Below, one piece after another: positions 12,727 to 18,435 of a DNA stretch of 57,335 bases (the first letter of the stretch is position 1; every line of letters starts with the position of its first letter). Where the stretch lies: NCBI GenBank assembly GCA_945787615.1, contig CALZJI010000002.1, forward strand, positions 1 to 57,335, written 5' to 3'. The notes under the pieces were generated by a model. It was not told where the DNA came from. It searched no databases and worked only from the letters and a program-made list of their open reading frames with translations. The stretch comes from an uncultured Chromatiaceae bacterium (GTDB lineage Bacteria; Pseudomonadota; Gammaproteobacteria; JAADHS01). Made by a program: the position numbers and the translations under genes.

Positions 12727-15190
12727 CGCCGAAAAACCTTTCCGTGAAAAATGCTCGCGAATCAAATTCGCCAGGTACAATACGGTAGAGCGTTAAGTAG
12801 CTCTCTGGTCCAGAATCAATTTCCAAGTGAATGCGATACGATCCCGGGCTTAGATCGCTGCCCAACGGTAGAAAAAAAGGGGCCCCTTTAGATACAAATT
12901 CGTTATGGGTGTTGAGAACCGGAACCGGTTGGTCGTTGTTATGGTTTGTTCGTGCATCAACGACTCTGTCCGTAAAGCTCCAGGTTTTGAAGGGGCCGAT
13001 CTCTTGTTGCGCGTGTCGTTCAATTCGGACATGAAGCCTTACCCGATGATGCTCATCGTTGGTGGAAAACAGTTGCGCCGAAAGTACCTCTTCCAAGTCC
13101 CTTTTAAGGTAATTAAACGTCAACCCATCGGACGGGATGCGGTAGCTCAGGCGCTTTATATACGCAGGAGCGTTCCCCATGGCGTGATTGATAAACCACT
13201 TACCGGATTCATTGGACGATACGTTCAACGTTCCGGTTCCTGGGGGGATGGGAGGAAGGCGTATCTCCCCACGGGAGCCTGCCACCAAACCGGAAAATAA
13301 CACCTCTCCGTTAAACGTGACTTCCGTTCGAGCAGGCGCGCGAACGTTGCGTACAAAAATTAAACTGGGGCGAATTCTGGAGAAGCCCTTTAGCGCTTGG
13401 AACGTTATGGGCGAAGGGCGATGAAGGCTAAGTTCCACGAACGTACTGGCTAGTGCTTCCTTTCTTAGTGGAGCATTTTCTTGTTTTGGTGTTAACAGAT
13501 GACGTCCTAGCCATGGGCCCTCCGGCTCGTAGCTCTCCCAACGGTATTGGCCGCTAGCAATATCTGAACTAACTTTCGGTGGTCGTCGTTGTATGTTAAT
13601 CGAATGACTGCGATGCTCGGTCATCAACACGGCGGAATTGGCTGGACGGACCAAAAACCAGGCGGGTTGGCGTTTATCATCGTCACGAGAAAAGTAATAG
13701 TCCTCGGGTACTCTTAAGTGGCGTTCGAGATCTATGGGGCGCGTATAGGCTGTAACAAGTGTAGGAGTATTGGAATAGAGACGTATTGCCGAAACGTTAC
13801 TGGGTATAGCGAAGTAATATCGGGCTGGCTCAGACAATCTTAACGCGGCAGTATCTAGCGAAAATCGATCGTACACGCTAGGGGTGTTGTCAACCGCCAA
13901 TAAGCCTGCTTTGACTACCCGCCCATGTGAGTTTAACAGCTCGTAGCGTACTGACTCGCCGGAGGGATTGTCCGTCCGGCTCGCGAACGATCGAACGTCG
14001 ATTCGCAGCGGTGTTGCCCCATTAGCCACATGTTGGACAGAGAACTCAACGGGAGCGTCTAAGCGGGTCTCATAAGCGCGGAGATAGAACGAAGCGCCGG
14101 ACACTTCGTTGTTATTGCCGTTCTCGTGCGAAGTTGCGCGAACCACTAGTGGGACGGAAGCCTTTATCTCCAGCAGCCCACCATCAAACTGTCCTTTAAA
14201 GTCCATGGTGGACGGCGAAAGAATAACCTGGTTGACCGCGCGTTTGCCTGGCCCCCGACCGTACCAGTGTAAATAAACGCTTTCTCCGTCTGCGTTGAGG
14301 GTGTGGTTTTCCGTGGGGAGAAATTGCAGCGTAAGCTCCGCGCCCCCTTCGGGAATCGGAAGGACTCCGCGTAACCATCGGTCGACAAATAGGCCCGCAG
14401 GGCGCGTCGACTCGGCCTCAATCGAAATTAGCGGATCCTCCTTGTTATTTATTACATAAAGTTTTCGATCCAGGTAATCTTTGCCTCTGACGCCTTTAGG
14501 GCCCGCCGGCTTACTTCGATTTAATAACAAGTTGCGCTTTTCCGCTTCGCGAAGCAACTCATGTCCGTAGGCGCTACCTCGGGCGATACTCCCTCGCTGT
14601 TTGTTGCTTAGCCGATGCCAAGCTGTTGCTAACTTATGTTCCGCCACGGGATCTGCTTCATAGAGCCTAACCACAGCATCAACAATTTCCGGGTCGCTAC
14701 CGGCAAGACGAACACGCAGGAGAGCGAGCCTATTAAACCCGGAAGTGTTAATCAGCGTTACTCCGCTATCCGAGGGCACGTTCGGGGTATTGAGGTAAAA
14801 AAGCCGAGTTAACTCTCTATTATTTTGCTTGTCGAGATAAAACGATACGCGCGCTCGATGGTGATAGATGCTCTCTTCTAGGACCTGCCCATCGCTATTT
14901 ATCACCTGATACTCGATGGCATACTTTCCAACCGTATCGACTTGTCGCGACGCCTGCTGCCGTACGCTGGCATTGAACAGTAGCGTGATGACGCCCCCCT
15001 TTCCAGACAGGGGAAATTCGAGCCACTTGGTCTCGTCCAAGACATATACGGTTCGCGGTTGTGCATTTTCAAGGAGCGACTTACCGAGTTGAACATGAGT
15101 TCGCCAAGGCAGTACCTGCCAATAACTCGCCGCATGCCAGCCTACTGCTAGCATTAATAGTAATATGAACGTTCGGCCGAAAAATCTCAT
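12716..15190 (-). CDS. 824-aa signal-anchored or secreted protein of unknown function
   Basis: The N-terminus has a hydrophobic segment (MRFFGRTFILLLMLAVGWHAASYW). The protein is predicted to be beta-rich. Its module ends resemble those of the 1814-aa protein (LSPGSYRIHLEI, IPPGTGTLNV). The start overlaps the upstream stop as ATGA. I recognise no family. Confidence 0.75.
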   Translation of the reverse strand: MRFFGRTFILLLMLAVGWHAASYWQVLPWRTHVQLGKSLLENAQPRTVYVLDETKWLEFPLSGKGGVITLLFNASVRQQASRQVDTVGKYAIEYQVINSDGQVLEESIYHHRARVSFYLDKQNNRELTRLFYLNTPNVPSDSGVTLINTSGFNRLALLRVRLAGSDPEIVDAVVRLYEADPVAEHKLATAWHRLSNKQRGSIARGSAYGHELLREAEKRNLLLNRSKPAGPKGVRGKDYLDRKLYVINNKEDPLISIEAESTRPAGLFVDRWLRGVLPIPEGGAELTLQFLPTENHTLNADGESVYLHWYGRGPGKRAVNQVILSPSTMDFKGQFDGGLLEIKASVPLVVRATSHENGNNNEVSGASFYLRAYETRLDAPVEFSVQHVANGATPLRIDVRSFASRTDNPSGESVRYELLNSHGRVVKAGLLAVDNTPSVYDRFSLDTAALRLSEPARYYFAIPSNVSAIRLYSNTPTLVTAYTRPIDLERHLRVPEDYYFSRDDDKRQPAWFLVRPANSAVLMTEHRSHSINIQRRPPKVSSDIASGQYRWESYEPEGPWLGRHLLTPKQENAPLRKEALASTFVELSLHRPSPITFQALKGFSRIRPSLIFVRNVRAPARTEVTFNGEVLFSGLVAGSRGEIRLPPIPPGTGTLNVSSNESGKWFINHAMGNAPAYIKRLSYRIPSDGLTFNYLKRDLEEVLSAQLFSTNDEHHRVRLHVRIERHAQQEIGPFKTWSFTDRVVDARTNHNNDQPVPVLNTHNEFVSKGAPFFLPLGSDLSPGSYRIHLEIDSGPESYLTLYRIVPGEFDSRAFFTERFFGDDA

Positions 15191-18100: not shown

Positions 18101-18435
18101 AAGACGAGGCGGACAATTACGCTAACGAGTACGATGGCGAAAAAACGGTCACGGCCGAAAAGGCTACTCCAAAAACCGAATCTTGAGAGGTTGTCAGAAA
18201 AAATCCGAACTAGAAAATACGTTACAAAGGCTTCGATAAAAACGACGCCGGCGGACCAGGGTTTCATGATGAGCAACGGCGCTAGATAACCTGGAACGAC
18301 AAGGCCAGACAATACCCAGCCTAACCGCAAGTTGAAGAACGCGACGACAAAAACGCCGACCCATACGGTGGTGATTACCGAGCTGGTTAAACTTCCTTGA
18401 GGGAAGATCGAGAGTGGGAAGATGTTTGAGAACAC
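15187..18435 (-). CDS. 1082-aa membrane protein with two tandem PgsC/CapC-like modules fused to a ~700-aa domain that contains two degenerate PghP-like repeats
   Basis: Module 1 shows GWVLSGLVVPGYLAPLLI (nt 18277-18306), ...FGRDRFFAIVLVSVIVRLVFD and ...SFGLVIIALIANQMWKTG, which parallel Bacillus PgsC (GLVVPGYLALVF, YGRRKFAAMLITGICLKLLFD, GIIVPGLIANTIQRQG). Module 2 shows GWDFNGILIPSLLALQWYQPLKIF...YLLSTLIAIKMHD. The internal repeats are YFAIEVPAPLEERGTLEAG...IAGARRNANPDGSADV (nt ~16750-17000) and NYVIQAPRPLFEANSFEYA...IAGAHPRANLDGSSDV (nt ~15860-16115). It uses a GTG start. Confidence 0.85.
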   Translation of the reverse strand: MFSNIFPLSIFPQGSLTSSVITTVWVGVFVVAFFNLRLGWVLSGLVVPGYLAPLLIMKPWSAGVVFIEAFVTYFLVRIFSDNLSRFGFWSSLFGRDRFFAIVLVSVIVRLVFDSTLLPMAGAYLETAWQIHFDYRNNLYSFGLVIIALIANQMWKTGFLRGLPPLVVTVGVTYFIVRYILMEYTNFTLSNLGYTYEDLATSVLATPKAYIILLTAAFIASRMNLRYGWDFNGILIPSLLALQWYQPLKIFTSLFEALIILGIGALLMRTPPFNQFNIEGARKLLLFFNVGFVYKVITGYVFLWYFPEIKVTDTYAFGYLLSTLIAIKMHDKNIVSRLTRATLQTSLVAVVAASIIGFSLTLLPFMELGANADHNATYIQTVVVKDKSLIDMVREDKVTLYRPRGKAGVPTPLPSEVAAFRSGIELLMRYHPNGDITLLRQAESSLAQVNYQLYRVDDRYLYLREREPSRGWGVYVIDKQARDYFAIEVPAPLEERGTLEAGTVLFMRSEAKALAIAGARRNANPDGSADVLNSSTTLYDAFHRIATRRDLLQVRGYTGEHARVLAGLRREAAQIDVTELPSRMWVRATLPPSLDLPMIKELVGDFEINWENSPFVNRQRNQTRTGFAELMLNRSNMRQLLGRSILTEHALPLTISDLRIDGHLQEWLFESKERIAQRGTQAYIVPELEELLFLDDEVITPLWNVLRDEHTKTGWTAQGLAELQNITASAAIIDYELFQYRHSPSDKNYVILAERDQAKPRRFWGTYVFRLGSANNYVIQAPRPLFEANSFEYAVALFERLDARVLLIAGAHPRANLDGSSDVIRLSNVHSLFSMVSQALLRETHGNPLMVIQSRALGRRKDTSPVDNVLISHRNGVKRLAEMNALGKNLLSLLEQDNIGYRFVDGSPQTAGYEVWNEPQALYLNATTNKEFVILWVPPSTRSTYRQQDNNRQEAAKFRSLGIETIEVNLYQFLSRFSGRPSPYTTLDLQRTVERYLLTGDIVTLRRLQVDWPRHRYQRLIDRDTRQTFLLVLDNKKRLTLVANTTPRQTNDVIFAPQGVLNHTLIQRFIDRRAGFLVTRKTG

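Follow-up and report, generated by a model that had tools for sequence, protein, structure and literature searches.

Why would a membrane module of the PgsC/CapC type occur twice in one chain and be joined to about 700 soluble residues that resemble a polymer hydrolase without its catalytic residues? The question is raised by a 1082-residue protein, here called p1082, encoded in a 57,335-nucleotide stretch of DNA from an uncultured Chromatiaceae bacterium (GCA_945787615.1, contig CALZJI010000002.1; the whole stretch is referred to as the window). The gene belongs to an operon with the order CHASE2 kinase, response regulator, p1082, p824, p315, p1814 and p1458, where the numbers are protein lengths in residues. 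We posit, with a probability of roughly 0.55, that p1082 forms the core, in the inner membrane, of a system that synthesizes and exports a polymer of the poly-gamma-glutamate type (gamma-PGA; an anionic polyamide) in two-membrane bacteria.

The 1082-residue protein and its PgsC modules

The gene and its parts are as follows (residue numbers are those of p1082).

15187..18435, (-) strand: whole p1082 gene, 1082 residues, from the list of open reading frames; PgsC/CapC modules in tandem, a pair of degenerate PghP-like repeats and a C-terminal tail
17887..18378, (-) strand: CapC/PgsC module 1 (about residues 20-183); best PF14102 stretch at residues 26-160, TIGR04011 at residues 25-172, helices from the model
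17356..17820, (-) strand: CapC/PgsC module 2 (about residues 206-360); PF14102, module scanned alone, at residues 216-336
16291..17298, (-) strand: repeat 1 (about residues 380-715, boundaries approximate); PghP/p315-like without the catalytic set (A490, E494, N532, R554, M630), from hhalign and residue tallies
15385..16290, (-) strand: repeat 2 (about residues 716-1017, boundaries approximate); PghP/p315-like without the catalytic set (R782, E786, R824, R854, W935), from hhalign and residue tallies
15190..15384, (-) strand: C-terminal tail (about residues 1018-1082); a small beta-rich element in the model (strand 1015-1056, helix 1062-1071, strand 1073-1079)

Translation starts at a GTG codon preceded by GGAGAA, and the TGA stop shares the bases ATGA with the ATG start of p824. 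In one NCBI assembly the gene is called 56 codons short (1026 residues; 18268-18435 on the (-) strand are cut off) and the first transmembrane helix is lost, while another NCBI assembly carries the full 1082 residues. Since these 56 N-terminal residues are common to the homologs, the long start is the real one. The family is large, with more than 1585 homologs of about 1080 residues and a relative encoded in at least 433 reference species, and its members are named just "PgsC/CapC" or "hypothetical" in the databases. The AlphaFold2 model of p1082 has a mean pLDDT of 82.6. A PDB sequence search with the 1082-residue protein returned no match, and a Pfam scan assigned no family to the C-terminal tail.

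That the protein begins with tandem PgsC modules, as the original prediction had proposed, is borne out by profile searches, in which both modules pass the PF14102 threshold. The whole protein matches this profile in two stretches (E 2.1e-41, 141.5 bits, cut-off 27), and module 2 scanned alone (residues 196-375) matches over profile positions 3-118 of 119 (E 7.2e-19, 68.8 bits, same cut-off). Module 1 holds the invariant motifs GLVVPGY and FGRDRFF, and its R95, D96 and R97 are invariant in a set of 81 species, made up of p1082 and the proteins taken from 80 reference-species genomes that span Gamma-, Beta- and Zetaproteobacteria, Magnetococcales, Desulfobacterota and Campylobacteraceae. The likeness between the two modules is remote (hhalign E 6e-4, 19% identity), but they align in the register suggested earlier, and by this comparison they are an old, diverged pair.

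The orientation of p1082 in the membrane can be read from its charges and from a studied relative. PhoA fusions to PgsC of Bacillus subtilis placed its C-terminus outside the cytoplasm and residue ~73 inside (PMC7490850). In the topology model of p1082 the N-terminus lies outside and each module crosses the membrane an even number of times, and neither the N-terminal tail nor the inter-module linker carries a positive charge. Residue 73 of the B. subtilis protein presumably lies in the loop equivalent to FGRDRFF. Lys and Arg residues number 14.3 on average in the loops assigned to the cytoplasm and 3.7 in the outward-facing ones (51 homologs). This positive-inside bias, the PhoA data from B. 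subtilis and the secretion of the paralog p315 (see below) together provide strong, if indirect, evidence that the degenerate domains of p1082 are probably periplasmic.

The duplicated soluble part and its intact paralog

The soluble part of p1082 is an internal duplication, as had been predicted. Repeats 1 and 2 align with 41% identity across 83 residues in blastp (E 4e-15) and with a probability of 99.4% in hhalign (E 4.7e-22). Their resemblance to the 315-residue protein encoded two genes downstream proved to be homology, with hhalign E values against the p315 family of 2.5e-14 for repeat 1 and 6e-11 for repeat 2. When each repeat was scanned alone, no Pfam family was matched, PF05908 included, and a PDB sequence search found no relative of residues ~380-1082. 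In the p1082 model, strands and helices succeed one another in each repeat as they do in the p315 model. Homology with p315 and this matching order point, indirectly, to a carboxypeptidase/PghP-like fold in both repeats.

11833..12780, (-) strand: p315, secreted paralog of the repeats with the set H138-x3-D142...H209 / E287 intact, probably an active zinc hydrolase of gamma-glutamyl type, from invariant residues, model, Foldseek and the register with PghP

The p315 family was characterized from 54 homologs, with 50 sequences aligned (query included). The true start of p315 is probably Met19. Almost all family members carry Sec signal peptides and few have a lipobox-like motif, and the earlier description of p315 as a lipoprotein was consequently given up for the family. 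The AlphaFold2 model of p315 (pLDDT 93.5) matched putative metallopeptidases, carboxypeptidase U, the tubulin deglutamylase CCP5, DapE and the N-formylglutamate amidohydrolase (FGase)-family protein 2odf in a Foldseek search of the PDB (probability ~1, E 1e-5 to 1e-3). In BFVD, the second match was the poly-gamma-glutamate hydrolase of Bacillus phage Bobb (E 3.7e-5, TM 0.49), followed by an FGase (TM 0.56). The modelled fold of p315 is thus of the zinc-carboxypeptidase/PghP/FGase type. By sequence the family is less easily placed: it has no Pfam assignment, PF05908 stayed below significance for p315 (E 0.096) and reached E < 1 in just 3 of the 50 homologs, and PDB searches with p315 alone and with the family profile gave nothing useful. 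The proposed link to PghP therefore holds at the level of the fold and of remote profile similarity, but not at that of Pfam.

Alignment with 11 phage PghP proteins, whose residue roles and mutational data are taken from the literature (PMC6506827), and transfer of the register to the repeats through profile alignments gave the following equivalences.

PghP H40 (zinc ligand): p315 H138; repeat 1 A490; repeat 2 R782
PghP E45 (zinc ligand): p315 D142; repeat 1 E494; repeat 2 E786
PghP H78 (second-shell His, mutation damages activity): p315 H183; repeat 1 N532; repeat 2 R824
PghP H103 (zinc ligand): p315 H209; repeat 1 R554; repeat 2 R854
PghP E165 (equivalent to catalytic Glu270 of carboxypeptidase A, mutation damages activity): p315 E287; repeat 1 M630; repeat 2 W935
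PghP R171 (invariant Arg): p315 R293

In the p315 family these residues are invariant or nearly so, with the exception of H183 (His in 37 of 50). Taken with the model, this suggests that p315 is probably a secreted, active PghP-like zinc hydrolase of a family outside Pfam. The repeats of p1082 are different. Each has lost four of the five PghP catalytic residues, namely both His ligands, the second-shell His and the catalytic Glu, and retains from the set only E494 or E786. A complete catalytic set was found in neither repeat among the 81 species. The view of the repeats as non-catalytic versions of a gamma-glutamyl hydrolase-like family is supported by their homology with p315, the fold of p315 and this loss. 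The replacement of the His residues had also been described correctly for the first position (A490 and R782, at p315 H138) and for the last one in repeat 1 (R554, at p315 H209). In repeat 2, however, the last His is replaced by Arg854 and not by Ser; the Ser named earlier is the neighbouring Ser853, an offset of one residue.

The replacing residues are themselves conserved: A490 in 63 of 81 species, R554 in 74, R782 in 71, and both R854 and W935 in all 81. At the site equivalent to E165, repeat 1 has varied hydrophobic residues where repeat 2 always has Trp. As the catalytic set is absent throughout and its replacements are kept, the comparison indicates that catalysis was lost anciently and that the former active-site region is still under selection, which argues for a retained non-catalytic function. 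This is the pattern expected of a domain that binds a polymer without cutting it, which makes such a role plausible, and arginines at the old zinc site would suit a carboxylate-rich polymer. A loop with the pattern N-x-D-G-S-x-D is conserved in both repeats (residues 523-529 and 815-821) and not in p315; it resembles calcium-binding loops and may be of relevance to an anionic polymer.

The PgsB-like ligase and the operon

The remaining genes of the operon are listed below.

2023..6399, (-) strand: p1458, 1458 residues; HEAT-repeat region, hydrophobic helix (residues 711-729), PgsB-like amide ligase and C-terminal extension
3229..4254, (-) strand: PgsB-like ligase domain of p1458 (residues 716-1057); TIGR04012, profile positions 4-330 of 380
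6392..11836, (-) strand: p1814, giant secreted protein with a signal-peptide-like N-terminus; candidate conduit through periplasm and outer membrane
12716..15190, (-) strand: p824, operon member with an N-terminal hydrophobic anchor
18387..18887, (-) strand: single-domain response regulator; PF00072, E 1.6e-26
18809..21517, (-) strand: CHASE2-type sensor kinase at the head of the operon; CHASE2 E 1.1e-13, weak GAF and HATPase_c

The idea that p1082 is a membrane synthase component is strengthened by a PgsB-like ligase within the same operon. The domain lies inside p1458 and matches TIGR04012 with E 5.5e-58 and 196.5 bits; a Pfam scan of p1458 did not detect it. A view of the operon as lacking a PgsB ligase was abandoned when the motif GWGTRGKSG was read in p1458 and the NCBIfam match was then obtained. 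The ligase motifs GGWGTRGKSG and TNTYPDHEDLQGPAG, which include the ATP-binding motif, are invariant in 25 p1458 homologs of about 1400 residues, several of which are named PgsB/CapB by the Joint Genome Institute (JGI). Beside the ligase domain, p1458 has about 1000 further conserved residues. Its first 700 residues contain HEAT repeats and a conserved block (residues ~505-610: RGHxFGFRxWR...HPSPDKRQAF...ETKVPGEPLF...GWRPYLPL), and a second glycine-rich motif, MGxQNIKGTGLDFVYRWQAW, is found at residues 1224-1243. The sole matches of p1458 in a PDB sequence search were designed HEAT-like repeat proteins.

The operon is conserved well beyond the window. Among loci with enough flanking sequence, p824 directly follows p1082 in 60 of 62, and downstream of it p315 is found in 51 of 57, p1814 in 42 of 45 and p1458 in 41 of 45; upstream, the CHASE2 kinase is present in 47 of 52 loci and the response regulator in 31 of 52. 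Overlaps of starts and stops between the genes indicate co-translation, and the end of the response regulator gene overlaps the start of p1082 by 49 bases. The full seven-gene cluster is carried by the cultured Halomonas sp. ZH2S (GCA_009793355.1, WTKP01000006.1 61859-82623), with products of 888, 128, 1068, 827, 254, 1718 and 1382 residues. A Pfam scan of 26 open reading frames of the window gave no match to PgsA/CapA (PF09587, PGA_cap). For p824 and p1814, neither Pfam nor PDB sequence matches were obtained. The last ~400 residues of p1814 show an alternating pattern that could represent an outer-membrane beta-barrel, and its middle part has a helical-repeat-like appearance. In the kinase core, HATPase_c was matched in Pfam (E 0.0012) and HisKA was not.

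A proposed polymer system for two membranes: mechanism, rivals and meaning

We posit the following mechanism. The PgsB-like domain of p1458 would polymerize glutamate or a close analogue in an ATP-dependent manner on the cytoplasmic face, beside the Arg/Asp loops of the PgsC pair. The fused PgsC modules would form a pseudo-dimeric membrane unit working with the ligase, and the chain would exit through or along this unit. On the periplasmic side, the two domains descended from PghP-like zinc hydrolases would keep the scaffold of a binding cleft, with Arg, Ala and hydrophobic residues at the sites of the metal ligands and the catalytic Glu, and might grip the emerging polyanionic chain without cutting it, which is the extracytoplasmic role ascribed to PgsA in Bacillus. 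From there the chain may be passed to p824 and p1814 for transit through the periplasm and outer membrane, while the intact p315 could trim, size, release or clear the polymer. The CHASE2 kinase and the response regulator may control the operon or the machine itself.

Several observations weigh against this reading. For every member of the operon, the link to a polymer is drawn from sequence comparison and models; binding of the polymer by the repeats is plausible on these grounds, and the roles suggested for p824 and p1814 derive from their position, size and signal sequences. Both synthase parts fall short of the equivalog cut-offs of their families, p1082 with 76.1 against 96.45 bits for TIGR04011 (PgsC) and p1458 with 196.5 against 222.7 bits for TIGR04012. 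By these scores p1082 is related to PgsC while sameness of function is not certified, and the product may accordingly differ from gamma-PGA. The profile score between p315 and PghP is weak (hhalign E 6e-4, probability 29%; E 0.03 with other settings), and that between the repeats and the PghP family is not significant (E 0.5 and 0.13). Foldseek with the whole 1082-residue model gave no match at E <= 0.001, the best local match being a carboxypeptidase-like protein with a probability of 0.77. The parts can also be arranged otherwise, as a variant locus of uncultured origin (L085, 6174-11014) encodes a 540-residue protein, composed of the first ~230 residues of p824 and a p315-like domain, followed by a p1458-like gene of 1073 residues, with no CapC gene adjacent.

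Three other explanations have to be considered, two of which concern the function of the dead domains. These might act as regulators or docking sites for the active p315 and recruit the hydrolase, or switch it on, at the exit of the synthase. Degenerate LytM factors offer a precedent, as EnvC and NlpD activate cell-wall amidases; they likewise keep a conserved zinc-hydrolase scaffold without metal ligands beside active relatives, but the repeats of p1082 are carboxypeptidase/PghP-like rather than LytM and are fused to a polymer synthase subunit. Docking would fit the presence of the intact paralog in the same operon at 51 of 57 loci, the overall scaffold and several conserved surface residues kept by the repeats, and the fusion of a p315-like domain to the N-terminal part of p824 in L085, which suggests that the periplasmic parts associate physically. 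The strictest residues of the repeats (R554, R854, W935, E494 and E786) are, however, located at the old active site, which suits ligand binding in the cleft better, and we regard docking as rather unlikely to be the main role, although it would be compatible with polymer binding. The repeats could instead still be enzymes with a metal-independent chemistry, for instance a transferase or transpeptidase by which the chain is attached or remodelled. Both repeats retain a Glu (E494 and E786) and have invariant arginines and the N-x-D-G-S-x-D loop. Yet each has lost four of the five residues that PghP needs, among them the general base, which has become Trp in all 81 species in repeat 2 and varied hydrophobic residues in repeat 1; the old active site has no conserved nucleophile, and an intact paralog is available for catalysis. 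We consider new chemistry highly improbable.

The third explanation concerns the product, which might be something other than free gamma-PGA, such as another poly-amino-acid, or a glutamyl tail added to an acceptor of the periplasm or outer membrane that the repeats would then bind. The sub-threshold scores of the PgsB-like and PgsC-like parts would be in line with this, as would the ~1000 extra conserved residues of p1458 with their block and glycine-rich motif, the H-x3-D of p315 where PghP has H-x4-E, and PgsA and PgsE not being found in the 26 open reading frames scanned. Gamma-glutamyl chemistry is nevertheless indicated by every recognizable enzyme of the operon, from the PgsB-like ligase and the PgsC modules to the PghP/FGase/CCP5-like hydrolase, and the JGI pipelines also name the ligase PgsB/CapB. 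This makes a different product doubtful in our view, and we favor the poly-gamma-glutamate-type system outlined above.

Compared to the PgsBCA(E)/CapBCA(E) systems of B. subtilis and B. anthracis, the present operon likewise encodes an ATP-dependent amide ligase of the PgsB type together with PgsC-type modules, and a gamma-PGA-type hydrolase is associated with both. The outward C-terminus of PgsC is shared as well (PMC7490850). In contrast to Bacillus, two PgsC modules here share a single chain, which continues into ~700 residues of probable periplasmic location, and PgsB forms part of a HEAT-repeat protein of 1458 residues. PgsA and PgsE were not found, and two giant envelope proteins (824 and 1814 residues) come in addition, as does a CHASE2 two-component pair. 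Neither the PgsB-like nor the PgsC-like part reaches its equivalog cut-off, and the hosts have two membranes. With the phage hydrolases PghP and PghL (PF05908; PDB 3A9L, 6HRI), p315 shares the fold, and its zinc ligands, second-shell His and catalytic Glu, with the Arg that follows, come in the same order and register; it differs in H-x3-D instead of H-x4-E, in additional N-terminal helices and in the lack of a Pfam-level match, while the fused repeats have neither His ligands nor second-shell His nor catalytic Glu. The overall layout is that of the synthase-dependent exopolysaccharide systems (Bcs, Alg, the PNAG system Pga, and Pel), which combine an inner-membrane synthase with an operon-encoded periplasmic hydrolase and very large downstream envelope proteins. 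This likeness is one of general layout, with no homologous component. The polymer here would be a polyamide, built by an enzyme of the Mur-ligase type and not by a glycosyltransferase, and an outer-membrane barrel with a TPR scaffold is putative in p1814, which has no Pfam or PDB match.

Two further gene groups were noted in the window. Divergent to the operon and next to it, 22009-27039 on the (+) strand encodes a periplasmic binding protein of NMT1 type, a histidine kinase with HAMP and PAS domains and a GGDEF response regulator, a group that may link cyclic-di-GMP to polymer production. At 31311-35039 on the (-) strand, two DUF1631 genes are adjacent, one full-length (819 residues) and one of 329 residues that corresponds to the C-terminal third of the profile.

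In full-text literature searches, neither the tandem PgsC nor its C-terminal domains nor this operon was found to be described. One study names CapB and CapC, which may or may not be the genes described here, among the "storage compounds" functions enriched in certain Thiodiazotropha clades and does not analyze them further (PMC11168628), and a survey of PgsB/PgsC co-occurrence does not analyze this arrangement (PMC4497714). What is new is the architecture and the operon, the parts themselves being of known kinds (PgsB, PgsC, PghP-like fold). PDB sequence searches with these proteins returned no structure of PgsB, PgsC or a Mur ligase.

For PgsBCA itself, neither the building of poly-gamma-glutamate nor its export is clearly understood, and the literature assigns PgsC and PgsA roles that are supporting or unknown (PMC7490850). 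The family presented here gives natural clues: two PgsC modules per chain suggest that PgsC works as a pair, and an inactivated hydrolase fused in place of PgsA suggests what the task of the extracytoplasmic partner may be. The operon also offers candidate parts for the crossing of the second membrane, a step that is not understood for any poly-amino-acid. Its carriers include symbionts (Thiodiazotropha), wastewater organisms (Competibacter, Accumulibacter, Nitrosomonas) and giant sulfur bacteria, for which the product could matter in the biofilm matrix, in metal binding or in nitrogen storage, and the cultured carriers Halomonas sp. ZH2S and Desulfobacter latus make the system testable. We tentatively suggest, at somewhat less than even odds, that the seven genes constitute a complete and so far unrecognized synthase-dependent pathway, in which an anionic poly-amino-acid would be made and threaded across both Gram-negative membranes by a tandem PgsC membrane unit, with pseudo-hydrolases replacing PgsA as the periplasmic holder, a PghP-like paralog controlling release and two giant proteins serving as the conduit. 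If this is true, polyglutamate-type polymers would be a widespread component of the envelope or matrix of sulfur-, methane- and iron-oxidizing, nitrifying and sulfate-reducing bacteria.

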